A stretch of DNA of 63,989 nucleotides, filler included, from Phoronis australis (lineage: Eukaryota; Animalia; Phoronida): NCBI GenBank assembly GCA_002633005.1. It is 6 parts of 6 records of this genome, joined end to end, with 100 filler letters (N's around TTAATTAATTAA, not from the genome) between each part and the next. Parts side by side here need not be neighbours in the genome. Positions count along the whole stretch, not along the records: positions 42,153 to 58,723 come from NMRA01000608.1; 5 more parts are not named here. One strand, given 5' to 3'. The notes under the pieces are model-generated. The model searched no databases. It saw only the letters and a program-made list of their open reading frames with translations, and was not told the DNA's origin. Below, one piece after another: positions 15,323 to 63,989 of this stretch (positions within the stretch are counted from its first letter, which is position 1; every line of letters begins with the position of its first letter). The position numbers and the translations under genes are program-made.

Positions 15323-15628
15323 ACATCACCTAAATGTATAAAATCGGCGATAAGTTAAAACTGTGCCAAACATTGTTAAGAGAGATTATTAACCAAGGTG
15401 ATCATTTGGTCACTGCAAATAAACACATTTTTCGAATAAGAGACCATACTGTTTTCAGTTGCCGACACTAATCAAAGAGAATTTTCTATATCAATCGCGA
15501 AATTAACGAAAAGTAATGTACAGCTATCCTCTGAAGGTTTGGATTTTTGTTTGGCACACCTCAAGATTAGTCCTTATCAGCCTGAACCATCTACATGTAC
15601 TGTATATGCGAGTTATCTGTTTACTTAC

Positions 15629-15727
15629 TTCATCCTTTTCGCGTTCATCTAATCCATTACTTCGAAGCAAATCCACTGTATCAATATTTCCTCCCAATGC
15701 AGCAAAATGCAGAACTGTTCTCTTCCC
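15629..15727 (-). CDS. Ankyrin-repeat exon 4 (GKRTVLHFAALGGNIDTVDLLRSNGLDEREKDE)
   Basis: 99-nt phase-0 exon, tag acceptor and gtaagt donor. Confidence 0.85.
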
Positions 15728-16300: not shown

Positions 16301-16393
16301 TCTGTCTTGTGGGTGAACACTTGCTCCTTCAACCAACAACAACTTGACAATATCAAGGTGACCTCCCAAGGATGCATAATGTAAAGGCGTTCT
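16301..16393 (-). CDS. Ankyrin-repeat exon 3 (RTPLHYASLGGHLDIVKLLLVEGASVHPQDR)
   Basis: Near-consensus ankyrin repeat; gtgagt donor; expected 99-nt acceptor at 16400-16401 reads GG, and an in-frame AAG 6 nt inside gives a 93-nt exon. Confidence 0.75.
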
Positions 16394-17831: not shown

Positions 17832-17930
17832 GGAGTCAGCTTGACAAGCATCCGTTGTTTTCGTCAAAAATCCCGTTAACACTTCAGGATTACCTCCCAG
17901 CGCAGCATAATGCAAAAGGGAATCATTGTT
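17832..17930 (-). CDS. Ankyrin-repeat exon 2 (NNDSLLHYAALGGNPEVLTGFLTKTTDACQADS)
   Basis: 99-nt phase-0 exon, cag acceptor and gtaagt donor. Confidence 0.85.
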
Positions 17931-18360
17931 CTGTAAAGATACAACGGAGCATTTTCAAATTGACAATAAAGGTGATGGTTCACTCAACATCAAAATTTAA
18001 ATTGCGGTCGTTTTACATTAACCTCAGAGGTTAAAACCAAAAATTTTTACAACCCTGGGATGGATAATTTCATTATTTTAGGTCACAAGGTGAGTTGCCA
18101 AAAATGGCAACGTACTAAACACGATAAGACTTTTTTGCTATTTGCTATTAAAGTGTTAGTCAGCTCATAAGATTCACGCATATGTCCAGCTGCATGGTTC
18201 CTTTGAAGATTGCGGCAGATTTTAAGATTTGCCAGCCGGTCAAGTTGCCCTAACTCGGGCGGTGAGTGCGTCAGCGTCAGATTAGTTAGAACTGCACAGT
18301 GAACAACACTGAAATTCAACCGGCCAAATGGTGATCTTACATGCAGGAATATTAACTTAC

Positions 18361-18459
18361 GGCGTCTGCCATGGGTGGGTGGGGGAATTTATCCAAAATA
18401 AGGTTCACAATCTCCAGATTGCCCCCCAGAGTTGCAAAACGGAGAGCTCCTCTTATCCA
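18361..18459 (-). CDS. Ankyrin-repeat exon 1 of those visible (WIRGALRFATLGGNLEIVNLILDKFPHPPMADA)
   Basis: 99-nt phase-0 exon, cag acceptor and gtaagt donor; GGNLEIVNLIL ankyrin helix 2. Confidence 0.8.
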
Positions 18460-19055
18460 CTGAAAATTACGATGATTTATTGATATTATTAAAGATGGTG
18501 ACATACTTAAAGTCACTATTTCCTTTACTTTCGCCTGCTTAGATCACAAATTGAGCTTTGCCAATCGAAAGATATCACTAATTCAGAGACTAAACTCAAA
18601 GGTGGATTTAGGGGGGCAGCCCCCTTCACCCCCCCCCCGTCTGCCGCAAAAAAATAAAACAGCAAGAGCGTGAGGGAGTGTTGAGTTTCTCAATTAACCA
18701 AGACAATTAATATTATACGGCTGAAACAAAATTAGCAATGTTTGTGCGTGTGGGGGGAGGGGCTCACGTGTCCGTTTCAGACCGCTGGCGCAATCGTAAC
18801 GGAACTATGGTTAAGTAATGGCGCTCCTGGTCGATATTTGCGTGACATCCCAGCGGAGCGGCAGTGGCGCTAGGCACCATCAATTTGTGTCTGTTGTCTG
18901 CTCCACTGTGCAATTAAGGAAATTACTTCATTTTTTCAAAGAAAACGGTATCTGATTGACGATGAAGCAACAAAAGCTACTGGTAAGATGTAAATTTTAA
19001 TCAAAGCCTCAGTGAATCACTCAAAACTCATAATTTTCTCTTTGTGAAATATGAA

Positions 19056-30141: not shown

Positions 30142-31308
30142 TCATCGACTACTTGCTTTGTACGGTCTTCTGAACAACAAGATATGAGGTTCTGAAAGAA
30201 GAAAAAATGGACAGACCATGAGCGAAAAGATATCTAAGTATTGTAATCCATGTTCAGGAGCCAGAGTCTAACATCAGTACTCGCAACCGAGCTCAAAATT
30301 AGTCTGTGCTCGAATACAATATGATTTATAGATATATATTTCTAGTCCGAGTTTGCACTTCATCACCCCTATATCTGTGCTACAAGTAGGAACTCAAGAT
30401 TTAAAGTAAAAACTTGAAATTTGGGGTTCAAACTTTAAATCAGGGCAAGCCTCCAAATCTAAGTACTACACTCTGCAAGTGTTGTATGCAACTAGTTTCT
30501 GCAAGTATTGACAGGTTCCATATATCAATTCAGCACAACTAAACACGAAGAAATTTTCTGCAAATGACAAATTTGGGAAAATTGTGCATTGTAGAACCCC
30601 CAAAACTCGTCCCAGTTGCACAAGAAATTTGCACCATAAACTAAACCAAAGAAAGTTTTAAATCGTAAAATTCTTTGCCTTGAGGAGACAATGGTGTCGC
30701 CAATGCACCATTGTATGTCTATGATGTACATCAAGGCATATGTATGTAGCTCACTTTTCGTTCCAAATGCTATCCCTTGAGTTTATGTCCTGGACTCATA
30801 TACGTAAATCTCTGGAAGCTGGGTGACTGCATTACACCTTGCAGTTCCAGTGTCATCTTCTCCGGCATGACATGACCTACCTGGTATGTGCACCATGTAG
30901 TGTTCCCAGCCAGGTGACTGCTGCACGCCAAGGTTGCGCCACTCCGTCTCCGACATCAGATGGTTCCTTGGCACAAACTTGGAAATTTCCTTTGGCAGCA
31001 CCACATGTCTAAAATTATGAATGGCGATGTAAAAGAAAAGGAGAATACAAGATCAACCATTTGAGATTTTAACAGTGTAACCCCCAAAAGCATCACAGAA
31101 GGCAGCGCAGAGCTTCAGGCAAATTTCCCCACCAAAGCTCCACCCATACTTAAGTACAGTCAAATGTTGTGCCTGTTGCCCCAAACCCAAATATGGATAG
31201 AGGGTGGAGTCCTACCAGTTAATTTATGCACAGCACAACTCACCTGTACTCGTAGTGCTCATCCATGTACTTCTCGGAGTATGATATGTTTTCTATGGCA
31301 GTAGACAT
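30142..31308 (-). CDS. CKS1: Cyclin-dependent kinases regulatory subunit (CKS1/CKS2 family), complete 80-aa CDS; exons 31244-31308, 30881-31008, 30142-30191
   Basis: [80 protein letters not shown]; GT-AG introns; 65+128+50 = 243 nt; HxPEPH hinge. Confidence 0.97.
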
Positions 31309-37260: not shown

Positions 37261-39771
37261 CACGAATTAGTCCCTCTGATGAAGGGGGATATGCCTCCGG
37301 TGAAGTGGGCGGATTTTCAGCTTGTGCTTTGGGTGAAGTTTGTGNNNNNNNNNNNNNNNNNNNNNNNNNNNNNNNNNNNNNNNNNNNNNNNNNNNNNNNN
37401 NNNNNNNNNNNNNNNNNNNNNNNNNNNNNNNNNNNNNNNNNNNNNNNNNNNNNNNNNNNNNNNNNNNNNNNNNNNNNNNNNNNNNNNNNNNNNNNNNNNN
37501 NNNNNNNNNNNNNNNNNNNNNNNNNNNNNNNNNNNNNNNNNNNNNNNNNNNNNNNNNNNNNNNNNNNNNNNNNNNNNNNNNNNNNNNNNNNNNNNNNNNN
37601 NNNNNNNNNNNNNNNNNNNNNNNNNNNNNNNNNNNNNNNNNNNNNNNNNNNNNNNNNNNNNNNNNNNNNNNNNNNNNNNNNNNNNNNNNNNNNNNNNNNN
37701 NNNNNNNNNNNNNNNNNNNNNNNNNNNNNNNNNNNNNNNNNNNNNNNNNNNNNNNNNNNNNNNNNNNNNNNNNNNNNNNNNNNNNNNNNNNNNNNNNNNN
37801 NNNNNNNNNNNNNNNNNNNNNNNNNNNNNNNNNNNNNNNNNNNNNNNNNNNNNNNNNNNNNNNNNNNNNNNNNNNNNNNNNNNNNNNNNNNNNNNNNNNN
37901 NNNNNNNNNNNNNNNNNNNNNNNNNNNNNNNNNNNNNNNNNNNNNNNNNNNNNNNNNNNNNNNNNNNNNNNNNNNNNNNNNNNNNNNNNNNNNNNNNNNN
38001 NNNNNNNNNNNNNNNNNNNNNNNNNNNNNNNNNNNNNNNNNNNNNNNNNNNNNNNNNNNNNNNNNNNGTAAACATCAAAATGAAAGTTAAAAGGCTGATT
38101 TGAAATTTTTAAGTCCATGGCACAAATACCGTGGAATGCACCTGTAACAGTCGTTTGAGTTGTGCTTGCTCATGTTTTTGGTTTTGTTGTCGACCTCACC
38201 TTTAAATTTTTATTCGATTTTGCCAAATGTTGTTCCTGAGAACGCTTTGACAAAGTACTGCCTTTTTCTTGAACTTGTCACACTTAAAACGTTCTACAAA
38301 TACTTTGTTTTTCATTATGACCTGACATTTCTCAGTGTGCACTTTGTTAACCTGTTTATTGAACTGGCTGGTCATCAATATCCCACCCACTGTTTATGTG
38401 CTTTATGCCTATTTCCTTCAGTGACCCTACATACTCTATTGTTTTAAATACTTGTTTGTGCCACTATTTTAATTGTGAATAATATCACTCGACTGACTGT
38501 AATTGTGAATAATATCACTCGACTGTAAGGCATGTATTTGACTGGAATTGTGAATAATATCACTCGACTGTAAGGCATGTATTTNTATTTGACTGTAAAA
38601 ATTGCAGCATCTAAGATTATTTTTATTTATAGGTGAATATGTTCTGTTTAATGGGTTTAATAAATAACCATTACAAATTTATGTTATGTGTTGGTTTTTG
38701 AAAATAAGATCAAACTGTGTCAAACCATCACTGTTTGGCACTTCTACTCAGTGACAATGAGTCACTTAAAAGTAATCTATAGGTATTACTTTTGTATCTC
38801 TCTTCTCTCAACTGACAAGCTTGATGTGGGACTTGAACCTCATTGGGTCCATCATTGTACCCTTCTGTTTGAGCATTGTTTCAGAAAGCACATGACAAAT
38901 GATATTTGATACTGCGTAGGTCATGCTGTTATTGTGTTATATCTCAAGGCTGTATAGGAGATAAGGGAATGTGTCCCCAAATGACTGAGTCCCAAGCGAT
39001 GGCTTGGAGGCGAGGGTGGTTGCAATTTTGGGGTGATACTGAGTTTGAACATAGCTGCAAATTTCATCTTCCTACCAACCTGCATGTGATTGACCTTTGC
39101 AAGGTAGATGTTAATCTACCATATGCTCTTGTCCAGATAGATATTGTACGACCTATTGTATCCCAAGTGGCCAAAGTGTAAAGTAGTGATGTAGTTCTGA
39201 CAGGCTATCCAACTATCCAAATCATTAAATGTTCTCGTTTTTTACTTGAATTTTGATTTTTATGCTTGTGAAAAAAGTGAAAGTTGGTTCCTTGAAGAAT
39301 TAGTACAGTACAAGTTAAAGTGTGCGTTTCACCGGCTGAAGCATTATGGGTATCACGTGATGCCAGGGATTTTGATGCATAGCTATTTTCAATTGGAAGA
39401 TTTCGTAAAACCAGCTTTATCATTAGCGACAATGACGGTTGTTTTTCAAGTGCATATTGGGACAATTGTCTGCTTGTAAACATGTGCTAACATTACTGAA
39501 AACTTGTGTATAAATCAGGGTGAACATGCTCTGCTAGTAATGCATGACAATATCTTGCAAAGTCATGGTAATCTTGCGTTTCTCATGTCTCTGAAATGCA
39601 GGTCTACTTGTAGTGTTTTAGGTGGTGAAATTTAACTTAGCATGGGGAATCTGTCCCAAAATATTTGCTGTTTATATGCATTTGTGGCTCACTTCATTTA
39701 GTCATATTCTCACTAAAAAGCTTGTTGTAGTGGACCCCTACTTTCTAATATGATGGTGACAATCAAGTTTT

Positions 39772-40298
39772 CTGTGATGTCGCTGCATGTTTTCTGTGAT
39801 GTCACTGCATGTTTCCTGTGATGTCGCTGCATGTTTCCTGTGATGTCGCTGCATGTTTCCTGTGATGTCGCTGCATGTTTCCTGTGATGTCGCTGCATGT
39901 TTCCTGTGATGTCGCTGCATGTTTCCTGTGATGTCGCTGCATGTTTCCTGTGATGTCGCTGCATGTTTCCTGTGATGTCGCTGCATGTTTCCTGTGATGT
40001 CGCTGCATGTTTCCTGTGATGTCGCTGCATGTTTCCTGTGATGTCGCTGCATGTTTCCTGTGATGTCGCTGCATGTTTCCTGTGATGTCGCTGCATGTTT
40101 CCTGTGATGTCGCTGCATGTTTCCTGTGATGTCGCTGCATGTTTCCTGTGATGTCGCTGCATGTTTCCTGTGATGTCGCTGCTTGCTTTCCGTGATGTCG
40201 TTGCTTGCTTTCCGTGATGTCGCTGCATGCTCTCCGTGATGTCGCTGCATGCTTTCTGTGATGTCACTGCATATTTTCTGTGATGTCACTGCATGTTT
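39772..40298. repeat. Minisatellite, 22-bp unit ctgtgatgtcgctgcatgtttc, ~24 copies
   Basis: Directly visible; explains the three overlapping repetitive ORFs. Confidence 0.97.
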
Positions 40299-40467
40299 TA
40301 GGTCGATATTTGTCCCATGATGCAGTTGAACAATGACATCAAACAAAGGATAATGTTGCTTTATGAAGAAAGTTTCTTGATACCGAGAATGCTGTACTTT
40401 AGCTATATATTTGATTGTAATTCACACGTGTTTGTGAAAGTGATTGTGTATCTCTGCTGTATTCCAG

Positions 40468-40586
40468 CTCGTAATGGTTCAGTAGTATCACCCTTCCATG
40501 ATATCCCACTGTTGGCCCAGAATGACGACAAGAAAGTGTATAACATGGTAGTAGAAGTGCCGCGCTGGACGAATGCAAAGATGGAG
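40468..40586 (+). CDS. PPA1: Internal exon of soluble inorganic pyrophosphatase (family I, PPA1/PPA2-like)
   Basis: [39 protein letters not shown]; cag acceptor, gt donor; other exons not found and may lie in gaps. Confidence 0.9.
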
Positions 40587-42152
40587 GTACAGTTGCAACT
40601 ATGTATACTTGACCTAGTTACTAAAAAATTCTTTGATTATCTTTGCAAGTGTTGGTGTAGGCTGCATGCAGGGTGTTTGTATACATGTATGTGTGTATGA
40701 ATAGTGTAGTGATTAGGCCTGTCTCACCTGGTCATGAGGGTTTGTACCCCACCAGATAATGAGGGTGTCTGCTTCCAGGTGTGCAGGCTCTCTGTCTCAC
40801 CTGGTCAGCATCTGCTGTCTTTAATGTACAGTTAATTAGCTATTTTACCTCAACTGAGTAGGCGGACATTTTGTTATCTGGCATAGGGTGTGGGAGAATA
40901 GATGGTTTACCATCACTTCTTTTCAAGTCATAACATGTAGTTGTCACTTAGCTTATGCTTTCATGAAATTAAGTGAGGAAAGCATTTTTATAAACTTTGT
41001 CTTTTTGATGTTGATTGGACTAATATTTGATTGGTTTTTATCGCTGGTAAGGTGATAAAAGTCCAACCATGGATTGGTTTTAAATTAATCTTCGTTTTTT
41101 TCAACAGGGGTGTTGTTATCATGGTGTTTTGCTGATAACAGTTTTGTGAGCCACTCTATAAACCTCTCATATTTATCATGCAGCAAGTAAAGTCGATAAA
41201 TTCAGTTTACAATTACAGGTATCCAAATATGAATGCAGCTAATTATGTACATTTAGTATATATGTGCATTAATCAATAGTTCTACTTGGTAAGGTGTTCC
41301 TGATTTTGTTATGAGACAGCAGTTCATTGATTGGAGTAGTTCTTAAAGAGGTTGAAGGAGCTAGTATATTGTATTCTATTACCTTTAAATGCTCTGATGT
41401 CTTTGGCACCAGTCCTGTCTTCAGGTGGATAGTCTCCGTCCTCAGCCCTGTCCACCACGACCTCTGGAGGTACGCCAACCGAGTTGATCAGGCTCGGTCC
41501 AGGACTATATGGCTCGTATCGTCTCACTTACCGGCCCAGGACTATGTGCCTGGTATCGTCTCTCTACCGGTCCAGGACTGTATGGCTCATATCATCTCTC
41601 CTATAACTTCAGTGAGGCAGCATCACAAGCCTTCCCACTTCCTCCAGACTTCTTGCACCACTGTTCATTCCTCTTCTTCCATATCCACTGTGACGCCCTC
41701 TCCGCTTGCTCACTTACAATACCAATGGCCTTCTTCCTGTATTCTTTCTCATAGAAACATAACTATTGTTTATGCACAGTGTAACACATTCCATGTATAT
41801 AGTGCAAATGTACCTAGAGCTGTAGTAATTTACATGTCTTGTTGCCCCATGTAAACTGTGGCCAACCGATGACAACCTATAAACTGGTCACATTTTCAAT
41901 CTATTAGCAGCGCCTAGAGTTCACAACTGAAAATCTAAAGGTGTCTCGGAAGACCATAGAAACTTGTACGTGTCAGATGTGTTGCAAGTACTGTCGAACA
42001 GGTTGGGGCAACAGGTTAAAGCAGGACGTGGACACACAGGTTACGACCATCTNNNNNNNNNNNNNNNNNNNNNNNNNNNNNNNNNNNNNNNNNNNNTTAA
42101 TTAATTAANNNNNNNNNNNNNNNNNNNNNNNNNNNNNNNNNNNNNNNNNNNN

Positions 42153-43997
42153 TAGAGTTCCCGTTGAAAACATTGGACCTATTTCGAGTGAAACTACCTT
42201 CAAGTTTCTCTATTCTTTTAGCCAAAGCATCGATCATAGTGACCATTTTATCAGTTTTATCACCACTATCAAGAGAGTGATGTGACTGCGATTTTCTGCT
42301 GAACTCAATGTCTAAACGACGGGCGTAAATCAGTAGCTCGCCAAATGATTCTTCGCTATTGTGTTCCACAAAATTCTTTAGACCAAGTCTGACGTCATTT
42401 GACAGCAAACCAGACACAAAATGTGATTTTAGCACAGATGGCAGCGCCTCTTTCGGAATGGGACCTGATTCAGACATTTTCATTTGAACTACTAATTTCT
42501 CTAAACGCCCAGCCCATTGCTTAACGCTTTCATTTTTATCCTTTCTAGAACTGTAGAATTTTTCAACAATTTTTCCAACAGGTAACACATCACCGTATCT
42601 AGACTTTAACTTACTAAGTAATTCGTTTACAGACAAATCACATTCAAGCAATTCAGCCGCACTGCCCCTCAACGAGCGTCTGGTAGCTTGTTTCAGAAAA
42701 CCATCGTTTTGCAACGTAACCTGCAAACACTGAACTTCGCCTAACCACTGCTGAAAGGAAATACCCGAGCTCTCACTACCTGAAAATGCGGGTAAGCGAA
42801 CAAGGTCACTATGAAAAACATTACCCCATGAGTTCACACTTGAAGACGCATGTTTACTCTCAACACTGCAAGGGTGCCGGACCCAACAACAGATGACACA
42901 ATTATCTTTTGAACAGGAGACAGCTCCCCTATCAATGAAATCAACGATGACATATTTTCATAACTTTTACCGGCACATTCACGGAGAAATGACTCATCAG
43001 TAACAGTAGCTTTTGAAATTTTTAATTTGAAATCCTTGAAATGGTTCTTACGTACAAAATTAACACACTTGTTAACCATTTTTTCAGAATCAAAGACGAT
43101 ATAAAAGAATAAGTTAACTCGCCAAGCATGCTTAACGCCATTGCGAATTTCAGCGGGCAGAAAATTCAACAACTCACCATCCTCACACTCTGGTACGTCA
43201 CCAACAATCACACATTTGTCACACAGCGAATCCATGACAAAGGATGAAATATAAGGAACATGAACAAACTAAGAATCACCCCAATAATGTGAGATAACTT
43301 GACCTACAGCATGAAAATACACTAGTTTAAGAAATTAAAGAACTCTCAATACCCGGCACATAAAGTGAACTTATGTCAAACAACAGTAACACAAAACATT
43401 TTCAGTGACACAAAATGCAACTGAGTCCAGTTTCCTGCAGGATTGGGCGTCGTCAAACACATAGTCCAGAAAGTTCCGTTCTTGGCGAGCACGAGGATCT
43501 GTTCCAGACACCACCACGAACTTGTGACCACGATAGTAGCAAATTAAGACATTGTTCTTTCCAGAAAATTCTTACCCTAGTCGGGACATAAATCTTGTAA
43601 AGTCAGCAAGCAGTTCAACTTTCCATGCAAGGCCGTAGCACGGTCATAATTTTACAGACGTCGTCAGAGAGAAGTTCTGGTTTGTTCGATTTACGTTGGG
43701 CGCCAAATGTAACCCAGCAAGTCTCCACTGAACTTCAAAATATGTATTTTCTCTCATCAGGCATTCGTTTCAGTTCAATTTGCACATGATAACGATCAAC
43801 TTTCCATGAAAGCAAAAGAAGGAAACACCCTTCTCCTAAGCCTGTCGCTAGCGAAGTGCCCGACACATACAGTCGCCCACATGCCCACGTAACGAAGGCG
43901 CACTGAGACGCAACAAAGACATTAGCATAAGAATAACTGAACATTTGCAACTAAATAAGAATAACAATAAGCGTAAAGTTACGAACGTCCCGTCACA
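42153..43997 (-). mobile_element. 5' part of a Ty3/Gypsy LTR retrotransposon: LTR, PBS and PNMA-like gag, truncated by a gap
   Basis: 290-bp LTR TGTGAC...GTTACA (43708-43997); PBS TGGCGCCCAACGT (43693-43705, tRNA-Lys-type); gag in two frames (42834-43235 and 42153-42837) with RLPAFSG, SFQQWL, RRSLRGSAA, ESVKQWAGRLE. Confidence 0.92.
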
Positions 43998-44648: not shown

Positions 44649-44798
44649 CTTCACTGCATGTCATTCCTTTAAATCCAGTAACACAGGAACAGCCGTATGG
44701 ATCTATTGTGCACACGTACTTTCCCCGACATCCTTCCTCATTATCCACCTCGGAGCACCTGGATAAGCAGTCACTTCCAAACCGATTATCTCCACAAC
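44649..44798 (-). CDS. Tie/TEK-like receptor, EGF-like repeat 2 exon (CGDNRFGSDCLSRC...CTIDPYGCSCVTGFKGMTCSE)
   Basis: 150-nt phase 1-1 exon; DPYGCSC is characteristic of Tie EGF2. Confidence 0.92.
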
Positions 44799-48243: not shown

Positions 48244-48375
48244 CTGTTGAACAATTGTGCCCCATAAACCCGGGAGGGCAGATGCACTCCCCAGTTATGT
48301 CGTGACAAATGCCCCCATTCAAGCATTTTGGACACTCGCCAGTGCAATCAGCGCCATATTTACCACTTTTGCAAA
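48244..48375 (-). CDS. Tie/TEK-like receptor, EGF-like repeat 1 exon (CKSGKYGADCTGECPKCLNGGICHDITGECICPPGFMGHNCST)
   Basis: 132-nt phase 1-1 exon; TGECICPPGFMG matches Tie EGF1. Confidence 0.93.
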
Positions 48376-50266
48376 CTGGAATGACACAGATTAATCGACG
48401 TCTTACCGATCCACAGTCAATAGATTCACGATAAGAGCTCAGTTATCTTAGGGAGTTTAACATGTTATTCATTATAACTGGTCGACAACTGCCCCCTTTC
48501 TTGGAATATCTGTTAATTACTTATTTTCAAACCATCAATTCTAACATTTTTATATTCTCATGATGATAACATAAAGCGCTCCAAAAATCCTACCAGCCAG
48601 GTAAAAACATGTGCGCAGGGATTTTACAGAGTTGGCCATAATATTCAGAGACATGAAATTTTAAAGGTAACTTGAACATTCTCATTCACCATTCTGGGAC
48701 CAAAAGGAGTGCCGTCGACAATCATAAAACGGCAAGTAAATAGTCCATTCTTTCGACTAGAATCCCATTGAATTTTGGCAAACCTTCGAAACATGTTCGA
48801 CAATTGTCATTCTGGCCATGTGAAATCGCGACAAATTGTCTTGAGATTCCATTTATAAATAAACCAGTAGCGTCTACACCCAATGATTTCACACTTTACT
48901 CCGACAAAATTGTTATTGTATTGTCACAAAATTTCCTGTAAACTGCTAGATAATCATGTCAAAATGATCCTCCAAGCTAATTTCCAGACTGTATGAGTTT
49001 TGTTGAACGTTGTCCAATTTATTTTGGAGTCCACTGGATGAATTGTCAAAAGCTCCTCACCTCACCTCTTCGTTGCTTGGACCGAGGTCGAAAATACTTG
49101 ATAAATCGAAATACAAAGAAGTCCGTTCTTCTGGACATTGAATTTACGTTATGGATATATGCTTTTGCGTGAGAGTACACAAAAGTTGAACTCACTTGTC
49201 CTATATCCACACTGAACTAACGGTAGTTTCAGTTGCCTTCACTGCTTAATATTCCATTTGATGTTAAGACATGGATTAATTGAGTCTACGAGAGTCGAAA
49301 TGAAATTGAAATTTCCTTTCCATGTTCGCTGTCAGTACTAAGTTGGATCAATCACATAACCTGCAATCACTACCGGCATTTTTGTTCGAAGGATTAGGCC
49401 AGCGCATACACGGTAAATAACTAGGCCTACCTACATGTATATTTAAAGCGCTAATCCCTGTTTAAATTCTTTCGCTGCATAAATGTCTGCAGGCAGCCAA
49501 AAGGACGTTTTAACAGACGGTATTTGTGGACTTTTGGAGAAAAGTTACATGTATGCTTTGATTTTGAAGAGAAAATGAGTTCAATTTTTAAGTTCATTTA
49601 TTTAATTGTTTTAGAAAATGCTTCCTCTATGCATTTGTCATGGTGGCTAATGTCAGTAGAAATAGAACTAATGAAAAACGGTTACTTGCAGCAGATGCTG
49701 CATGTGTTCGGATCCCGTGTACTCAAGATCTGTATATTGCGTGAAACCAGCAGCTTGATCGTGTTCACAACGGCAACATGTTTTTAAGGTCACCGGAAAC
49801 CACTTACATGCATGCTGCGTAACTGATTAAGAACACATGTATGTCAAACCCAAAGGATTGATCGCTGTCAACTGCTTTCATTTTCCAAAGACTGATACCA
49901 CTCTTCGTTTCGCCAAGAAAACTAACTCTGATGCTCTAAAACGAGCCAGTACAGTTTGTGTTTTATTCAGGTGAGGCAAAATTTGATGTATGGTAAGCAA
50001 GTGAAGTTTGTAGACATTTTAGACACTGAAATTGGTCTCAGTTTGTTTGCCACAAATTGCGTTATTGGACTGGCAACTGATGTTCTGTTGACTTTCTGTA
50101 ATAGGCAAACATCTCCGGCAGAGTCCTATAGTTCGGTATTGTACAAAATTAGCCATTTCTCAACAACAAAACCAAGCAATTGTTGTTCAATTGATTTGTG
50201 TAATTTACAAGCAACTCTTAATGAAATCCTTCTTAACGGGAAGAATAGAAGAAATTTCTTATTAAC

Positions 50267-50512
50267 CTCTAACAATCAGGCGGGTTATGCCAAGAATGTT
50301 TCCAGTTGATCTGTATATAGTATATACGCCGCCATGTCCCACATCTACGGAGGTGATGGTGTGAGCTAGGTTACCATTCCAGCCAATTATGTCACCGCTG
50401 TTGTGAAACCCATCGTTGTCTTTCTTCCATTTGATCTCTGACGAATCTACTCCTTCAAATGTTAGAGTCGCATCGTCACCTACGCTTACTCTTGTTGTAA
50501 ATCTGCTCGTCG
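50267..50512 (-). CDS. Tie/TEK-like receptor, Ig2-like exon (TSRFTTRVSVGDDATLTF...IKWKKD...GGVYTIY...ITRLIVR)
   Basis: 246-nt phase 1-1 exon; strong polypyrimidine acceptor; RLIVR precedes EGF1 as in Tie. Confidence 0.88.
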
Positions 50513-50718
50513 CTACAGAAGAAAAGAAACACTTAGCATAATAAGTCTGTGCCTTATTTGTATTTAAGCGATAACAGTGGCATTGGCAGGCAACCTCTGC
50601 TTCGGTTCGCGAAATCTTCGAGTGGTAAACAAATCAAAAAGTGAACCGGGTATGCTTCACGTGAATACCTGTACCAATTGGATTTAAAATTTATGACACT
50701 TTAAACATAGATTAGTAC

Positions 50719-50964
50719 CTGCACTGATTGGTTGTCCCCATACTTCCACTTCACACAAAGACAAGGTTTCAGATTTGCTGTTGCCGTTCTTGATGATGTA
50801 CAAGTATCTCCCAATGACGGGACGGTCACAAGATATGTACACAGTAGTGGCGTCACTGATGGTACCGGTGTGGTGTTTGCACAGAGCGTCGGTAGAGGTC
50901 GCTGGTGGTGTGTCACTTGTATTGGAGACCCTGACTTCGAAATCTCTGAGCGAGTCGGTGAGAC
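50719..50964 (-). CDS. C-terminal half of an F-type lectin (fucolectin/FTP) domain (LTDSLRDFEVRVSN...LC...ISCDRPVIGRYLYI...LSLCEVEVWG)
   Basis: 246-nt phase 1-1 exon in a frame not listed in the ORF track; GRY and LCEVEV hallmarks. Confidence 0.88.
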
Positions 50965-51390
50965 CTTGAGTACATATGATTGCAATTTTGTTTGTGCTGA
51001 TCGCCTATCATACAGCGTATTCCATAATAATTTGCTAAGAATAAAATAACTAAATGTGTCACGCTAGGGAGCAAGTGAACAATGTGTTGGTGTAATGAAC
51101 ATTTAAGTCATCTCCACGACAGCTTATGGGGTTTACAGCATGTGTTATTTACAGTTGTCGTCAATGTGTTCCTGGCTGTGCCACAATTTATCCAAAACTG
51201 ATGGTCCACAAATAATTTGACTTCTTGTTCCCCTTTAGGGTTAGATTGCTTGAGTTTTTTGAATAATCAGTTGAATACAGGAGTATCAAACCAAATTCAA
51301 ACTACTTTGTCACCTGAGTCCAATAAAAACATGGTACTTAGCAAACCAATTAAACAAATGAAAATCAACAGTAGCAGACCAATGTCATAC

Positions 51391-51600
51391 CTGAACACAG
51401 GCTCACGTCACAATAAACCCATCCACCACTTTTAGGGTAACACCACGGTCCTCCCACCATATTATCAGGATTCCTGCAAAAATAACTTCCGCGCAGATAA
51501 GGCCACCTTGTATCGTTCCACATTTTGCATGGGGAGTTGTTATTAGCTTTTCGGACTGTACCCATGTAGTCTCTTCCTCGTTGGGTCTTTTTGCAGTCAT
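51391..51600 (-). CDS. Kringle domain exon (DCKKTQRGRDYMGT...PCKMW...FCRNPDNMVGGPWCY...YCDVSLCS)
   Basis: 210-nt phase 1-1 exon; six Cys; CRNPD and PWCY motifs. Confidence 0.93.
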
Positions 51601-52057
51601 CTAGAAATCGTCATCGGATTTTTGGTGACTCTAGCCCGACATTTATGCTTCATACATGTACCATGGTATGAACAATGTCCACAACCAACAACTTAATATT
51701 ATATGTGGGTTTAAGAGTTAGCTTTCTCGGTAGTGATGTAGTGGGAAATGTAACTTTGTGACTTCTGGGCAACCATTTTATAATTATATTGGGGAATGCC
51801 AACACATCATTTCAATTTACGAATTTTTGTCCAATGATAGCTATGATGTAACGGCAGCCAATTTTGTATCAACTGTAATGTATTGCTTTTTGTGAATAAC
51901 ATGTGTATTTTGACTCATGCGCTCCATGCGTACGTGAAGGAGGGATTACGTGATGATGCTGGAAAGAGTTTGAAAGGTTCCGAAAACACGCAAAATATAA
52001 TCGCTACGCATTTATCAAGCAAGTGACCCAACAACTGTTTAAACTGTGGACTGACAT

Positions 52058-52098
52058 CACACACACACACACACACACACACACGCGCGCGCGCGCAC
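52058..52098. repeat. (CA)n(CG)n microsatellite
   Basis: Directly visible. Confidence 0.9.
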
Positions 52099-55000
52099 CT
52101 CATGGACTGCGTAAATTTGTTACCAAGTTGGTTGCAAACTTAAACTCAATTGTTAACTAACTTAACGAAATATCGCCAACGAAGAAAATTGAGGCGTCCG
52201 TGGAGTCTACAGAGATTCATTCCACTATCACAGGATGATTCCGCTATTCTTGTCTACTAGCGGTCGCCAGGAGCCCAGAGTCCAAGATCATCACATAAAG
52301 TAACGTCGTGACATCGACATTAGTGAATTTGAAGTAAACCATAACTTGAACGCGGGTAAAAAAACACAAAAAATAAAACTGTAGTTGATGTGGGTCTGCA
52401 TCCCGACTCGAGAGTCTTAAGGTCACTGATTAAAACAAAACACTTCCACCCGTATCAACTCTGGCCAATGTTTACTTTTTGAAAACCTGCACGAAGTCAT
52501 GTAAGCAAGAGGAAGCAATGTCTGAAACACGATTAGTCACCAAACAATGAGTAATTAACTATAAATGATGCGTTAGGCAGTAATCAAAATTTCCAAAGAC
52601 GTTGGATTGACCACAAACTTAGGTATAAGATGACATAACGAGCACAGCAGTTGCTGACCCCTGCTCAAAACTGGTTTGTACAATCATATCCAAAACACGA
52701 CTAGAGGTGCTGAAAAAAGCTGCAATTAGTAGCCTTTTCGTCCTTTTGTCCATTTAGTTATTATTTTACGGGATATCTCTTGAACACCTGTCCGGATCCT
52801 GATCAAATTTAGCACAAGTGTGTGTGTAGGACTTCATGCTAAAAATATGTTGTGTCCATTTAAACAAACATCTTACGAGTTGCATTGGCAGAAGGTTTCA
52901 GTTGGTCAATTCTTCGACTATCTGTATATATTACATATTCCTTAAAATAACGTGCAAGATAACTGCCACAATTATGGTAAAGGGTAGAGTTTGAGCCTGG
53001 GACTTTTTGGCTGTAAGTTCAGTTCAGTACCATCATATTACTCTGTGCTGTTTCATTGCAACTCGGTACATATATATGGTACTCAGGCCAGTGGTGATTT
53101 GATTTGATTACACAGGCCGGTGGGAAGGCCAAACTTATTGGGGGGCACAAACCATTTCGACGTCGCCAAATAACTACCTCATCACCACCACCTCCGCCAC
53201 CCCCTCGCCCCAGTGCTCTCGATGTCACCATGCCTGTACCGAATCTCCCACGTCCGCCCTAGGTGGGTTGCACAGTGGCGGATTTAGGGGGGGCAAGTGG
53301 CAAAAAAGGTGGACACTTGAATGTCATCAATGTCCTCCTTCAAGGGCGGATCCCCTAAACATGAAAATATCTTTATTTTCAAATATCAAGAAATACGCAG
53401 CAATTGCTATAATCTGTCAGGTCATCATTTTAACTCAAATGATATAAAGTTTCGAGAAAAAAAAATAATAAAGCGAATCAAATGATATAAAGTTTCGAGA
53501 AAAAAATAAAGCAAAAGTTGCCTCCGTTATCCCTTTCCAGAGAGGGGCCTCTGGAAAAATATAGTTTCGCAAAATTGATTTACTGACTTTAAACATCCAG
53601 TAAATTAGTACACTCCACAAAAGCTTTGCTTTACAGAATTTTCTCGATTTTTCTAAAAATATGTGTGCGTTTAGACGACCTGTGTTTCAAAGGCGGAGAC
53701 CCTAACGCCAATGTCCTGACCAGGGTCCTCGAAAGGTAAACCATGCACTGATGCAGAATTATTAAAGGTTCTCTTGAACTTTCTCTCGTATCCGTATTTC
53801 GCAGTCTTTGTGTTATCCACTGTCCCCGGCCACACGCCTATGTCTGGTTGCCACGGTTCACCCAGACGCCTGAAAATTTTGGAGACCCGTGCATTCCCGG
53901 CCCCCCGGCTTCCCCACGGCCCTGTTACAAAATAACGGAAGATCACATTCCAGTATGTTTGAGAGTCTTAGTTATTAATGTAAAACCAATGTCTGCTAAT
54001 TTAGATCCCGGTTATATTTGTAGATTCCGGGACAAACGTATGTGTGCACGTGTGTGTAAATACACGCACGCGTACATACACCGTACATATGATTTTGAGA
54101 AATATGCGCGTGAGCGCATGAAAAAAAGTTGTTTTTACTCCAAATTTCGAAAATAATTATCGATCTTGTTCGCTCCGTTCCAAAGTTGTAGACAAACAGG
54201 TTCACGAAAAATGTGTGGCTAACCTGTTTTTCTCGGGTATGACACATATATAGATGAACTCACAACGCCGGAGAGCAATGCCAAAGCTACTGTGTGATTG
54301 GTTAACAATGCCACGATCCAATGGCTTAGGCGAGCAGTTTCGCGATCGTTTACCATGTTGACGTTCAAAGCAATGCGCAAAGAAATTTTGGCGCATGGAA
54401 ACAAGTAACTTGTACTTTTTATACAAAATGAATGGCATCGTGTGTGATTTGTACAGGCACCTTTGAGACGGTATCATAAACGCAACGTTGACAAATCATC
54501 GACAGTAGAAGCTTAAATATCCTGTGCACTTTTGCCCAAGGCTACTTTGACTGCAACAAGTACCGGCTTGGTATTGTGTGCAAACTTGTCTTGTGACAGA
54601 AAGGTACACTGTAATTGAATAATCACTCGTCATGAATCGTCTGCATTGCAGTGAAGTCCAGTCTAACTGAACTGTCTTCGTTGCAGAGCACAGTGTTGGG
54701 TACGAAATTCTATTCGTTATTGGCTTACACTCTACTGAGGTTGAGTTGGTAAAATGGGCTGTTCATAAGGATACATTTGGATCACCGTTTGGCGAACTGC
54801 TGAATTGCAATGACATCATCGTGTTTGCTGTCGCCAGTGACGTGAAAAATACGAAATTTTGAACGTTGGTACAAGACTGGTTAGGGTTGGGTAAAATGTC
54901 TCCCGCATCAGCTTTACTCGTCTCAGAATCGTTTTCGTTTGAGGAAATACACTGTACTGCACAACGGAATCGATTTTCAAGAGCTCACACACCCAGTAGA

Positions 55001-55132
55001 ATGAATTATACCTTTTGACGCCCAACTACAATTCGTAGGTGGTATGTAGAGCAGGCTCCATTGGATTGACATCATCAGTCAATGTACTAGGTTTGAACAA
55101 GCAAACCGAGAAATTGTAGCAAATCCACTTAC

Positions 55133-55375
55133 GTGAACCGTTTCTGCTCGTTACTTCAATTCCGTGAACTCTATGTTTCCCGCTTAAGTCAACCCTCCAC
55201 CACGGATTTTCCAGGTTACTTCTCTTCAATGTGTGAGAACACGACCGCCGGTTCATGAAGTCTGTAGACCGGTTGCCGTCAATAGCTTTCTCGGCGTCAG
55301 CAGTCCAATTCAAAGATGTAGAATTTACAAGCCTCAAAGTTGACGACTGATTAGCTCGAGACACTGGTATTTTAC
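55133..55375 (-). CDS. N-terminal half of an F-type lectin (fucolectin/FTP) domain (ANQSST...AEKAIDGN...CSHT...NPWWRVDL...IEVTSRNGS)
   Basis: 243-nt phase 1-1 exon with gtaagt donor; QSS, AIDGN, CSHT and PWWRVDL hallmarks. Confidence 0.93.
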
Positions 55376-55859
55376 CTTAACGAAAAGGAAAAATTGATTG
55401 GGAAACGTTTAAATTCGATTAAAAATACATCTCACGTAGGTTTGCCACGCCTTGGAAAATGATACTTTTGAAAATTAATAATGTTTGGAAGCCACTATTA
55501 CCATATATCAGTGTTTATCATCTTCAAAATGTAAATTTAGTCAAATTTGTTTCTAACTGCTGGTGTTATTGTGAAATTTAAACGAAGAAAATTCCCATTA
55601 TTAAAATCAGTCCTGTATCTTATCTGTCCAGTATTTTCGTATGTTCCCATGTGGGACAGCAAATCATGCGTTGGGTTCAACCACAGCATCACTTACTTGA
55701 TCCTGATCGAATATCGTAATGAATGACCGTAGGAGAAGGTGTCACATTGATGATTCAGAAGCAAAGTACAGTATTTGGAAATACGCCACTCTTTGTTCTT
55801 AATGAGAATAATCCAGATCTCAATGGCACATCGATTAACATCGAAAATGAGTTCTTAAT

Positions 55860-56607: not shown

Positions 56608-56865
56608 CGTAATTGATATTAAGAATTCTTGAATACAAATTGCTCTTGCTTCCATTAGTCGTGAAGGCGTTAATGCCAGCATGTATGCGGTACTTTTTAT
56701 ATCCCTCGGTTATGTTGGAGCTTAATTCCTTTGGTGATACCACGTCTGTAGTGTAATACACGCTGGCTGATACGATGTCAGTGGCAAGGTCAACATTACT
56801 TCCGCCATACACGCGTACAATTCCGGAGCCCAATGAAGAAAGCGTGCTGAGACGGTAGAGTGATT
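56608..56865 (-). CDS. Upstream extracellular exon of the Tie-like gene, possibly the divergent Ig1-like domain
   Basis: 258-nt open phase 1-1 exon with cag acceptor and gtaatt donor; domain identity inferred from position only. Confidence 0.6.
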
Positions 56866-59800
56866 CTGCAAAAGACTGTAGCAGCTCACTAACTATTCAA
56901 ATATACTGTGCATATTCCTGCAAAAATAAGAACATGCAGTCGTACGATGGCGAGTGTCTTGTCATTGCCGCGGCACATTATATAATGCAGCTGCTACGGA
57001 CCACTCGTTGTCCCTGGATGATGCCACAATCTTGGAGGTTTCTGTTGCCAAGAACGTGGGACAGGGCACTAAAGAGTATCCCGCGCACACTGTGCCGTTG
57101 TTCACATGATTAGTCACGTGACATCTCAGTGGCCCGCCGAAGGCCTCGAGAGCAGGACGCAACGTAGCCAGCTCAATCCGTAAGTCCAGTAATGGATATC
57201 AACATAAAGATGTACTAACTTTTACATCTATTAAAATTTCATGTTAATCACATAGATATTCATTTACAGGTTTGTGTATGTAATATTATATAACTACTTC
57301 CTGTAGTTGGAACTTTTATATCAGCAAACTTGACAGACCTAGGTACTGTATATTAGTCCCCTTGATGAACTGTTTTTGTGCAGCATAGGATTGCTGGAGC
57401 AAAATTTCTCAGTACCTTTCAATTGCTCATTAGCAACTGTAAGTAGATGTGACAAATTCAGCAATGTTATTCACATCCTTTAAAGCCCTAGTTGAAAAAG
57501 CTTCACATGGCGCAATAACATTGGCATCGTCACTCCGCACTGGCTCAGTATGAAAAGTAGCTATTACCAAACTGAGTGGATTTTTTGACTTACTACAACA
57601 AGGGGCATGGTGATCGTTTTTAAAAGATTTCTATTTAACAAGATTCTGAACATCCCTCAATTTCAGAGGAAACAAGAAAAAAAACAAATAGCCAAGTTGA
57701 GAATAGCCTACACACGGAGAGTCAATAGACACACCAAAGAAAGTCACTTGTGTTTTCACTCAAAGTTCCTTGAACATGACTGTCCCAGTAAATCAATTGT
57801 GGGCACAGATGTTTCCAGAGTATTAATTTCGTCAATTTATTTTGATCAGCATATTGAGATGTCCTTCAGGTGTTAAATAATATTAATCTGTAAGTTCACA
57901 GTTTTTAATATGTACAGAAATAAAGAAAAACGAGAGACCACTACAGATTGGTTTAAAACACAAGTGAATAATTGAAACCGAAAAAATCTAGATCACGATC
58001 AGTAAGCACAGAGCAGGCTGCCCTGACTGTGAACCCGAAGAAGTTTATTTCCACTTAATATTCAAGAGGTAATATTAAGAAAGGCTTATCACTGTCCTGA
58101 CCGAGTAGCCAACTTTTGCTTGTAAAAATCACACATGCCAACGATAATTTAATCGAATAATGATGCTTTTCATCTTGCCGTTGAGACGAAGCTAGGAGGT
58201 AATGAAACGATGCAAACCTTGTCACCCGCTGAGCAAAATTGGGCCAATGCAATGTGTTTGCACCAGAAAACATATTACAAGAGTGAAGGATCCGGCCATT
58301 GTGCGTGGGTCTGCTGATAGCCCACCGTACCAGTCCTATCACCGTAATAGCATCTTGTGCAATTGTTTATTGTAACTGCTTGGACATCGGACCAGACGAG
58401 TAGTCTACATGCACAGGATCCGCTGAACAAGCAAGAGACGTTCAGCCACTTAGTTGCTCGCAAGTAACTATCATCAGCGGTATGGAGTATCAATATATTT
58501 TTGATTATGTGTGGACTCCTGTTAAGTTTTAGACTATAGTTTAAACGTAGTCAAGTATGAATAAGGGGCTGTGCAGTTGAGACTTCCATAGATTTAAGAG
58601 TTATTGCATGCTGCTTTGAATCAGAAAGGTTTCATTTCATTACTTTGAACAGCTTCTTATTTAATTTGAACTTTTCTTATCTAGTAAAAATTTGCTTTTC
58701 AAGGCCAAAAATGGAGACACCCANNNNNNNNNNNNNNNNNNNNNNNNNNNNNNNNNNNNNNNNNNNNTTAATTAATTAANNNNNNNNNNNNNNNNNNNNN
58801 NNNNNNNNNNNNNNNNNNNNNNNTTCATAATCGCATTGTCGCTGTTGTCTCTAAAACCTGATAACTCATTTGTAATTCAAAGTAAAGATTACACTTTTTA
58901 TTGTTAATGATTAATAATGTTAATATCAAATTGTAACAGTTAGAAAGCGAACTCATTGTAACATTTGATTGCAGAGCCGCATGAGCCTCACAAAACATGG
59001 AGTAACTTTATCAAGAAAGTCTTACACTAAAACAAATGTACAATGATTTACACAGATCTGCTAGCTGAGTGACCATTATTGCAGAAGTGGAGGTGCCTGG
59101 GCTTACATCAACAACTAAATGAAAATGCTTTGCTCCTCACGCGTTAAGTTCGTGATAATCTCAAACACTTTAATTCATAACACTGTCCTGAACAAATACA
59201 TGTAAGCTATATGTCGTAGAAGGCCTAAGCATTGATATAAACCTACTCGGGTTTCATAATTAAACACCTGTAGGATATCATGACTGTCTTCAGAAATGTT
59301 AGGTAAGCTAATAGGTTTCAGAATTAATACTAAAATTCTTGTTGTACCCAGGAACAAAACCACTTTTTTACCAAACTAAAGGTCTGATTTGAAAGTTTGT
59401 CACTTCTTAAAAAGAGTCTCTGCAGAAACATACGATGTGTGCAAACGTCCACGTTGCCAGCAGATGAGGATTCACTTGTCTGTCACTTGACGAGTGACAC
59501 GCCTCTTTTCAGTGTACTTGCATGGCAGACATGAGTGAGCTGCAGTCACTCCTCTCCAGTTACACTATCAATCAGACCAATACTGCGCCAAGGACTTGTC
59601 TGCTGCAAATGTAAAAGCATTGACTCTTTGCTTCACAATAGTTTGTTATGATGCCTAAGGTTAGTTTTGGGATTGTGGTGGAAAAGATTAAAACAAACTA
59701 AAAAAATTCACCAATTTGGGACAAAACTAATTGCCATATTTGACCTTTTTTCATTTTACATGGTCGCAAGTGCCAACTAAAGTTTTCAAAATTTTGTGTG

Positions 59801-61640
59801 GTGGTGGATATCATATGAAATTTGAACAAAATAAACTATTAATTTGGTGGAAAAATATTTTCTATGAAAAGAATGAGAAAATTAAATTTCAGCTGTTGGC
59901 CATATTGTGTAGTTCTACTAAAAATTATTTTTAGACAATATTTTTACTGCCACTAGATGGCACGCTATGTTTCATGATACACAGTGGTTGGCAATGCGGC
60001 ATTACTAATATCAAATTTGGCTCGTTGAAAAAGACACCATTTACACTATTTTCACAAATTGAGAATGAAGATTTTCATCAATCAAGACATCAGTGAGTAA
60101 ATAGGAACGTTTCATACATTTTCGTTTTATTACTGATAATTCAAAAAATGAAGTCTATTGCCATTCGACTGTTGCAGCCATTTTGTTAGAGCACTACCAA
60201 AAATTACTTTGAAGATTACATAGTTCAGGTTATTTTGAAAACACTTGATTACGTGTTGAAAGAGCATATCATTGTAACTTGGGAATAAGTTTAAAACTAG
60301 ATTGATTTGAGGTCTCAAGTTTTTTCACTCGAAAGTGAAAGTATCTTTTAAAGGTCACTTGACATTTTTGCATTTGCTATTTACAACTTAAAATACCACA
60401 CAGCGCTAGGTGAAGCCAAAACCACAAACTTTAAACTGGTGAATCGTGCAATGGAGTATCTTCCAATCACAGCAATTATACAAGTGAACTTCATTGGGTC
60501 ACGCCGGGTTACCAGTACACATGCGCGCCCCAGCGGGGGGGCTCAGAGAAACAAAAAGTCCCAGAAAACGAGACAAAGTCTACCAAAAAGGCGCAGACAC
60601 ACAGTTCACAAGATGGTACCCCGTTTTTTAGTCCTGATGCCTTTTTTGTCAACAAAAGGTACACATCATCAAAAATTCAAGCCCCCCCACTCCATGGCTG
60701 GGTGCATTGCATGCTACAGAGGCAACTCGCTATAGGGTTCCCACAAAAGGTGCCTAAACAATGGTTTACAAAGACAAATTTCACAAAAAAAACACTTCAG
60801 ACACATGAACAGAACCACCAAAAACAAAATTAAAATAAGAGTATTATCTTAAATAGTGACTGAACTTAGACAGCGTACCAGTAAAGACTGTTGTGAGTCC
60901 TCGCTCTCTGTTATCTCCAGTAGTTGTGAAGGTACTACGTGGTCATTGTTATCCTCTATGGACGTGTTGTGGACTGTGGCCACTCTGGCCTTGGTGAGGG
61001 ACGCTTGTGACAGCTATAAAATTAATGTAACAACCATTACAGGAATTGACCACTGAATCTGCTCCTTCATTTATTTTTGCAACAATAGTTAATAAGGGAA
61101 ACAGTAATTTACATTTCATCAGATAACTTTTTTTTTATTAAATCACTAATTAAAATTGTTTCTTGGGTTTTGCATATAAAATTCAGGTGTAACACCTATG
61201 AATGATATTGATCTGCCTAGTTGTAATCTGTCACAAAAATAAGAGGGTGTTATTGGGGACAAATAAAACAACAAGAATAATAAATATTTTAAGTTGTATT
61301 GGCAATTTCAGGGTCACAGCTCTACAAATAAATATTTCACAGAAGGAACCAGATGGGTTCCTTAATTACAAGAGATAACACACACATTTCCGATACCCAA
61401 AGTGTAATTGAGTATCGGCTACTAAGTGGCACAGGTTAGCATAGTACCAAATGGGTACATAATACCAAATGGGTATTGGCCGATTGCCTACCAACTGGGT
61501 CGAGCAAAGCGGCAAATTCAATAACAAGTACCAAGTGGGTNNNNNNNNNNNNNNNNNNNNNNNNNNNNNNNNNNNNNNNNNNNNTTAATTAATTAANNNN
61601 NNNNNNNNNNNNNNNNNNNNNNNNNNNNNNNNNNNNNNNN

Positions 61641-63469: not shown

Positions 63470-63756
63470 TATACAGAATTTGTTAAATGCACGACACTTT
63501 TCATTGTTCACAGTCTTTATTCCGTTGCGTTCATACTTTCGGAACAAAACTCTACTCTCAACTGAACATAGATACAGTAACTGACCTAGCGACATAATTA
63601 AAAGACACTAGGTCAGTTAATGTATCTATGTTTAGTTGAGAGTAGAGTTTTGTTCCGAAAGTATGAACACAACGGAATAAAGACTGTGAACAATGAAAAG
63701 TGTCGTGCATTTAACAAATTCTGTATAACAGAAAACTTGCTCCCGAAGTACAGTCA
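63470..63756. mobile_element. Solo fold-back insertion of two inverted PLE pLTR copies with a 12-bp TSD
   Basis: Arms 63470-63589 and 63608-63727; 29-nt tail; TSD GTAGTTTCAATT at 63458-63469 and 63757-63768; same family as 19798-21958. Confidence 0.92.
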
Positions 63757-63989
63757 GTAGTTTCAATTGCTGAGGTCTCCAGACTAATTATGCAGGAATC
63801 TCGCATCTATTCGCCATATAGCAACTTAATTATTATTTCCGAACTGTTAGCCGTCGCGCTTGTCGATTTAGCATACTCTGCAACTAGATTTCAAACTCGT
63901 TTCAAATTGTTTAAAGGGAGACAGTAATATAAACCATAATTGCCGGAAATAATTGCCGGAGTAGAAGTAAGCACCTGGTAAACAATAAG

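Follow-up and report, generated by a model that had tools for sequence, protein, structure and literature searches.

F-type lectins are the best-described relatives of the domain considered here, with solved structures for the eel agglutinin AAA (PDB 1K12) and striped-bass FBP32 (PDB 3CQO). According to the accessible text of a review, the AAA fold is clamped by the disulfides Cys50-Cys146 and Cys108-Cys124, by calcium ligands at residues 35-49 and 146-147 and by the salt bridges Arg41-Glu149 and Asp64-Arg131, and its fucose contacts are His52, Arg79 and Arg86, with Asp81 and the vicinal pair Cys82-Cys83 in the CDR4 loop, a pair which is common and not universal as some active F-type lectin domains (FTLDs) are without it (PMC5712786). 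Here we describe a gene of the phoronid Phoronis australis in which a kringle exon lies between the two halves of a single F-type lectin (FTP) domain; it was found in a 63,989-nucleotide stretch of assembly GCA_002633005.1, six parts joined by filler, which we call the window. The window domain belongs to the fold family of AAA and FBP32 and shares their calcium motif, their structural disulfides and the residues of their salt bridges, but differs from them in carrying a 69-residue kringle in CDR4, a broken fucose motif and a receptor-like ectodomain context. The intron also sits elsewhere, in CDR4 in the window gene as opposed to near the position of AAA Glu123-Cys124 in the FBP32 gene, as far as the accessible text of the review goes (PMC5712786).

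Both the mechanism and the design principle behind such nesting are already known, from FN2 modules in gelatinases and from split domains in RTX adhesins respectively, and it is the FTP/kringle architecture that we did not find in the literature. In the gelatinases MMP-2 and MMP-9 the FN2 repeats, class 1-1 modules inserted internally like the kringle of the window gene, interrupt the catalytic domain near the active site; that host remains active and has acquired an exosite, whereas the window FTP lost its own binding residues and its relatives hold different guests. Insertion of a symmetric phase-1 module into a pre-existing phase-1 intron is the shuffling rule, for which the accessible part of one source names FN2 in MMP2 and the kringle in thrombin (PMC3927616). 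In the bacterial RTX adhesin AhLap, as described in the accessible part of another, a beta-sandwich is split in two parts and a loop projects a ligand-binding domain (PMC12077191); there the host is Ig-like and the guest a lectin, whereas in the window gene the host is the lectin, the organism an animal and the probable route exon shuffling. No description of an F-type lectin interrupted by either a kringle or a C-type lectin was found in the open literature, a coverage outside which the main FTLD architecture survey and its supplement fall. The accessible sections of the F-type lectin review report loops with short indels only and tandem domain partners (PMC5712786), and term searches within the accessible text of PMC5460417, PMC514892, PMC13673367 and PMC10084454 returned no split F-type lectin.

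A kringle exon between the halves of one F-type lectin domain

The original prediction placed an FTP N-half, a complete kringle and an FTP C-half in this order on the minus strand, all phase 1-1, and the three exons are present as described (Table 1). Their lengths of 243, 210 and 246 nt are all multiples of three, they have AG/GT ends and open frames, and the kringle exon is a class 1-1 module with a phase-1 intron on either side, as seen both from the exon boundaries and from RNA joints. All six exons of the gene are open, with splice sites intact and structural cysteines all present. In Pfam the N-half matches positions 8-57 of the 127 of F5_F8_type_C (E 8e-7, above cut-off) and the C-half, weakly, positions 63-119 (E 0.16), that is, complementary stretches of one model. 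Compared with solved structures the N-half finds FBP32 at E 9.5e-20 and AAA residues 17-80, and the C-half finds the fucolectin FBP32 at E 3.4e-5 and AAA 112-150. Taken as a pair the halves fall within the FTLD sequence profile and the F-type beta-sandwich fold family, with weak support for the pairing itself in a joined protein known from its sequence.

Half-domain profiles derived from eel-type repeats, run over the complete window in six frames, without breaking at stop codons, returned a single N-half (55319-55143, iE 5e-17) and a single C-half (50866-50735, iE 1e-6), all remaining matches in these frames having an iE of 1.3 or worse, while the whole-domain FTP profile gave one extra weak match (iE 0.11), distant and on the opposite strand (63588-63797). 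The earlier claim that there is no second FTP half-exon therefore stands. With one N-half and one C-half in the six window frames two ordinary FTP domains flanking the kringle are ruled out, and an unrelated gene nested in the intron is ruled out by the RNA joints on both sides of the kringle.

The N-half exon contains the AIDGN calcium motif and the equivalents of Cys50, His52, Asp64 and Arg79. The calcium motif h2DGx with Ser49, Cys146 and Glu147 is represented in full by AIDGN, a Ser ahead of the first Cys, and LCEV. Alignment to 1K12 shows all six residues of Cys50-Cys146, Arg41-Glu149 and Asp64-Arg131 to be kept, which would allow the same bonds, and all four links of AAA that cross the insert (Cys50-Cys146, the calcium site, Arg41-Glu149 and Asp64-Arg131; link list from the accessible text of PMC5712786) are thus retained in the alignment. 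With the cross-half disulfide, both salt bridges between the halves and the calcium motif retained, the N-half and C-half likely fold together as one domain. Two-chain fold prediction of the two halves gave a score of 0.57 compared with 0.00 for the best of three controls, repeat runs agreeing in at least 95% of contacts with a partner pLDDT of 70-71. Among microbial pairs 51 of 78 solved ones and 2 of 108 mismatched ones attain the pass mark used, among eukaryotic pairs 39 of 65 solved and 2 of 126 mismatched ones, and scores of 0.60 or less were obtained for 5 of the 78 solved pairs and for all 4 of the 180 mismatches that passed, so that the score gives weak support for pairing, and likeness to solved fucolectins can yield such a pass.

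That the splice point falls inside the sugar-binding loop was also borne out, as the N-half exon ends in CDR4, three residues past the Arg79 equivalent, with an N-G-S glycosylation sequon immediately after that Arg. The fucose motif H-x24/26-R-x-D-x4-R/K is accordingly split as had been proposed, in CDR4 after the first Arg, but the predicted His-to-Arg spacing of 26 was not upheld and the motif is also degenerate: His and the first Arg are kept at a spacing of 29, Gly replaces Asp81 and the kringle interrupts what follows. The vicinal Cys82-Cys83 is missing at the junction, and the alignments place a Ser in the C-half at the second-Arg position of intact FTPs (Arg86), where one paralog RNA read likewise has Ser. 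Among the other equivalents Leu23 and Phe45 are kept along with His52 and Arg79, and His27 and Tyr46 are replaced. On these residues we class the window domain as a degenerate FTLD and not as a canonical fucolectin.

The kringle scores 41.1 bits with PF00051 against a cut-off of 34.3, carries the CRNPD and PWCY motifs and aligns from one end to the other with plasminogen kringle 1. The lysine-binding site of plasminogen-type kringles consists of Asp-x-Asp plus Arg, and in the alignment with plasminogen kringle 1 the window kringle has D-N-M in place of D-N-D and a last loop without Arg. Single-sequence fold prediction of the kringle was uninformative (pLDDT 48).

The nested kringle-in-FTP architecture that had been proposed is thus supported by the Pfam and PDB matches, the single halves and the RNA joints of the gene family, and of the two functions originally suggested the lectin scaffold displaying a kringle is the better supported. 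We consider it probable that the kringle sits within one FTP at the sugar-binding loop, ahead of a Tie-like Ig-EGF-EGF stalk, and that a calcium-stabilised scaffold which does not bind fucose displays it as the likely binding tip. Such a gene would have arisen from an ancestor with a phase-1 intron in the CDR4 loop, into which a symmetric 1-1 kringle exon may have entered through exon shuffling. Kringles and C-type lectins both have chain ends near each other, and because of this a guest could bud from the loop without opening the host; in the kringle the first and last cysteines would pair and tie the ends, with the host sandwich closing behind. The fucose-contacting residues at the junction would have decayed, and the kringle, normally included in the protein, would bind its protein partner by means other than a lysine pocket.

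A brittle-star gene model with a different guest in the loop

The C-half word-index protein search gave a sole match among 49 candidates, the brittle-star protein XP_072015433 of Amphiura filiformis; the corresponding N-half search gave one of 132, an eel FTP-repeat protein. XP_072015433 has a weak FTP N-half reaching to about residue 285, a C-type lectin at 309-436 (Pfam E 1.7e-9) and a C-half from about 440, the split FTP as a whole covering approximately 200-532, ahead of Calx-beta repeats and a membrane segment, and its precomputed Pfam list holds no FTP entry. In the alignment this protein and the window gene are interrupted at one and the same column. XP_072015433 and XP_072015432 also share with the window domain the C-half signature YxYIxK...CEVEVWGQ and the loss of fucose residues, but differ in their guest (a C-type lectin of about 150 residues), in their stalk (Calx-beta as opposed to Ig-EGF) and in that the His, Arg79 and the calcium motif are changed as well. 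A model of the XP_072015433 segment aligned 135 residues, over the model range 3-340, with eel agglutinin 1-154 (Z 11.1, rmsd 3.2), and the match spans both halves since 135 aligned residues exceed what either half supplies.

Four of five metagenome loci likewise have a C-half exon that begins with a phase-1 acceptor at roughly this position and ends in a phase-1 donor (Table 1); upstream exons lie beyond their contig ends, and in none of the four C-halves is there an Arg at the second motif position. The fifth, L005, was a chance match and was excluded from alignments and tree. We saw no insert-free relative carrying the CDR4 intron. Three C-type lectin rows misplaced in alignment A4 were dropped for A5. 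In the tree the six C-halves of split type fall on a single branch (96/95), apart from 11 intact ones drawn from three proteins only, and this suggests a common origin for the split-type C-halves. The intact rows include 8 of 9 intact eel repeats and no intact echinoderm FTP.

Because the brittle-star gene model carries another module at the same spot, the lectin loop is likely a reusable socket that has given up fucose binding, the CDR4 intron having taken a C-type lectin in that gene. It is possible, and we offer it tentatively, that an ancient phase-1 intron serves as a plug-in socket with lineage-specific guests and that an expanded Tie-like family uses a fast-diverging kringle as a variable tip in immunity or self/non-self recognition.

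In the atlas search with the Amphiura segment all matches fell below 0.9 and were chordate FTP-plus-C-type-lectin clusters, displayed without domain order. The best 150 of 759 kringle matches were mainly multi-kringle proteins, and three of the 150 also have an FTP (P0085, P0086 and P0130), none of them nested; two of these FTPs are intact, and the third, from a diatom, appears to be circularly permuted, its CDR4 being uninterrupted. In this last protein (Thalassiosira exigua KAL7552708, P0130) the LTLAEV strand, usually the last, precedes the N-terminal part at approximately 740-870, between kringles of an LRR membrane protein.

Assembly, transcripts and competing explanations

Contigs of DNA run X1 agree with the window at zero differences over 50200-50784, 50879-52048, 52104-53164, 53378-53551 and 53723-55420 (8 of 1353 pieces shown), that over 50879-52048 running from the start of the C-half through the entire kringle. 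Among the X1 contigs listed none spans the microsatellite at 52049-52103 or the region near 53165-53722 of a high-copy repeat lying near 53000-53870, both of them inside the N-half/kringle intron, and X1 may be the assembly's own source. At least nine other DNA contigs cover the C-half, which makes this a gene family. The run search listed no RNA run containing the stretch, and RNA runs were chosen by species label. The RNA runs X5 and X6 are other samples with the same species label, from other individuals, of which 18-19% of each run was read. They join the kringle to the C-half (51391|50964; four reads with three starts in X5, three reads with three starts in X6), the N-half to the kringle (55133|51600; two reads in X6) and the C-half to the Ig exon (50719|50512; two reads in X6). 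The unaligned letters at these joints (20, 26 and 22) are the exon bases remaining at the predicted boundaries, and exon reads run nearly all in one direction, which fits a minus-strand transcript in a stranded library. Also within the N-half/kringle intron, short stretches at 51990-52301 attract hundreds of RNA reads on the opposite strand that originate from other loci, marking a small dispersed repeat that occurs in transcripts.

Several observations weigh against a displayed kringle as we read it. Because the RNA reads differ from the window sequence, the joints stem from paralogs or strongly diverged alleles and not from the window copy; reads at least 95% alike to that copy make up 6 of 1230, 3 of 1054 and 4 of 386 aligned reads (13 of 2670 aligned RNA reads, repeats included). 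The N-half/kringle joint rests on its two reads. The central part of the C-half (depth 92-100 in X5 and 51-65 in X6) and the Ig exon (58) are covered more deeply than the N-half and kringle, and some family members may have another insert, no insert or a more diverged front end. The 3' part of the gene lies outside the window. The nesting in XP_072015433 is a reading of a database gene model with predicted splicing, and the structural model of its segment is of low confidence (mean pLDDT 51.7, Foldseek E 0.029), with intact FTP rows in its alignment favouring the fold. The window C-half has a long branch (1.96) in a tree with thin intact sampling, and none of the best 150 of 759 kringle matches places a kringle in the FTP loop of a second species.

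A misassembly or deletion that put together an N-half and a C-half from two different FTP genes, with a stray kringle between them, would fit with the high-copy repeat between N-half and kringle, the many paralogs of the family and the fact that no single listed DNA contig spans from N-half to kringle. However in RNA of other samples, and of another study, the kringle is joined to both halves precisely at the exon boundaries, one zero-difference contig crosses the kringle and the C-half start, and the brittle-star protein is split at the same column, and we regard such an artefact as extremely unlikely. It is improbable that the architecture is real for the family with the window copy a silent or truncated duplicate: there are almost no reads at 95% identity or more, no exon was found past the second EGF repeat where a retroelement-like stretch and gaps follow, and a signal-peptide exon was not identified, but the six exons are open with splice sites and structural cysteines intact, and in partly read runs from other individuals, with gaps that can hide the remaining exons, a scarcity of this kind carries less weight.

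The other function originally suggested, a splicing switch in which the kringle exon is a regulated cassette giving kringle-tipped and bare-lectin isoforms, found no support. Skipping in frame would indeed be possible as predicted, the frame staying open (341 aa, 0 stops) with an Arg codon at the skip junction, at about the position of Cys82, and the pyrimidine tracts at the kringle and C-half acceptors are short. Of the three junctions proposed for checking, however, the two that include the kringle were seen in family reads and the skip joint, 55133 to 50964, was absent among the joints listed in both read alignments, a weak test of low power (N-half depth 0.05-0.15 at 90% likeness, and 29 joints unseen at 80%). 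Depth at the kringle 3' end (23 in X5, 15 in X6) is near that of the N-half (about 29 and about 17) and of the C-half start (27 and 13), and as an indirect check this profile fits mostly included kringles. Nor would R-x-D-x4-R/K be restored by skipping, as neither the Asp nor the vicinal cysteines nor the second Arg is present any longer, and a switch is in our view very unlikely. It is also unlikely that sugar is still bound at a composite site through the kept His and Arg, as in CBM32 galactose modules, with the kringle as a lid or second site adding glycoprotein specificity. The retained equivalents of His52, Arg79, Leu23 and Phe45 speak for such a site, but Asp81, Cys82-Cys83 and Arg86 are lost and His27 and Tyr46 replaced, a sequon directly follows Arg79 where a 69-residue domain emerges from the loop at the cleft, and the Amphiura version is without the His and Arg as well. 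A scaffold that displays its kringle is the reading we prefer over these.

Host gene, neighbouring features and significance

Downstream of the C-half the gene continues into an Ig-like exon and two EGF-like exons (Table 1), which together with the lectin and kringle exons read in order as one open frame, and this succession of Ig and Tie-type EGF repeats is that of the Tie family. The Ig exon has its best local match in a sea-urchin protein (iE 3e-7), and 50 loose read ends continue from it into EGF sequence. For the second EGF exon, the furthest downstream that was located for this gene in the window, an alternative acceptor nine bases further up was used in the joined-frame count and leaves the frame unchanged. 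Of 43 candidates in a search with the EGF pair 32 were matches, comprising kinases of the Tie-1 type, phosphatases resembling Tie and lectin-Ig-EGF-FN3 proteins of echinoderms, among them Nymphon Tie-1, a Lytechinus RPTP-kappa-like protein and C-type lectin-Ig-EGF-FN3 proteins of sea urchins and sea stars; these share with the window gene an Ig domain followed by Tie-type EGFs, the first EGF being 58-73% identical to Tie-named matches, and the echinoderm members have a lectin head on an Ig-EGF stalk. Unlike the window gene none of the 32 has an FTP or kringle, and the window yielded neither FN3 nor membrane nor catalytic parts. Past the second EGF exon, where assembly gaps follow, tblastn with 43 proteins (Tie kinases and phosphatases included) gave no match at E 0.05. 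The gene is not classed as a Tie orthologue, and its stalk may end in a kinase, in a phosphatase or simply in a membrane anchor; the host protein is likely a cell-surface receptor. The closest matches found for the gene are echinoderm, on thin sampling. A candidate upstream exon has low read depth on the expected strand.

Table 1. Exons and introns of the split F-type lectin gene, neighbouring features in the window and C-half exons in metagenome contigs
Feature	Coordinates	Strand	Phase	Remarks
Candidate upstream exon	56608-56865	minus	1-1	85 aa; weak Fn3-associated/CHB_HEX_C match, E 0.0038; link to gene putative
FTP N-half exon	55133-55375	minus	1-1	Pfam and PDB matches; 2 RNA reads to kringle exon
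Intron N-half/kringle	51601-55132 (3.5 kb)	minus		without FTP half-exon (half-profile search)
Kringle exon	51391-51600	minus	1-1	69 aa, six cysteines; RNA joints on both sides
Intron kringle/C-half	50965-51390 (426 nt)	minus		without FTP half-exon; one 0-difference DNA contig across
FTP C-half exon	50719-50964	minus	1-1	7 reads to kringle exon, 2 reads to Ig exon
Ig-like domain exon	50267-50512	minus	1-1	Pfam Ig_3 E 0.0013; atlas Ig matches 0.93
First EGF-like repeat exon	48244-48375	minus	1-1	Pfam EGF_2 above cut-off; Tie-1-like matches
Predicted second Tie-type EGF exon (DPYGCSC)	44649-44798	minus	1-1	acceptor from sequence only
PNMA/gag-like retroelement fragment	42154-43900	minus		E 1.7e-4; directly after last found exon
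CKS (cyclin-dependent kinase regulatory subunit) exon	30786-31052	minus		Pfam E 3.7e-22; downstream bound of receptor gene
One-repeat ankyrin exon series	~12168-18543	minus		Pfam Ank at 16232-16417, 15527-15727, 12168-12401
C-half exons, one animal's metagenome contigs	L001:793-1070, L002:96-390, L003:749-1045, L004:881-1170		1-1	close to XP_072015433

Elsewhere in the window, related copies of the retroelement fragment are transcribed at a depth of 50-95 in X5 and X6. A tandem array with a short unit and a higher-order period of about 60 bases, open in several phases, occupies 39716-40421, and a plus-strand open frame at 40302-40697, likely an exon on the strand opposite the receptor gene, contains SPFHDIPL and a further stretch of 13 residues, both motifs of soluble inorganic pyrophosphatase. 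Gaps such as 58724-58823 and 61541-61640 consist of a 12-base palindromic spacer flanked by 44 N on each side and are a scaffolding mark, not biology.

The mechanism proposed here is textbook exon shuffling. What the locus offers is a clear example, in an animal, of a binding domain turned into a scaffold for another via an intron in its binding loop, apparently with lineage-specific guests, and it makes testable whether intron position sets where domains nest and whether host function is lost before or after insertion. The CDR4 loop appears as a natural grafting site for protein design. For the lectin family itself, split FTPs fall under database cut-offs, as with the Amphiura protein listed without an FTP, and the number of F-type lectins counted in invertebrates is therefore likely too low.

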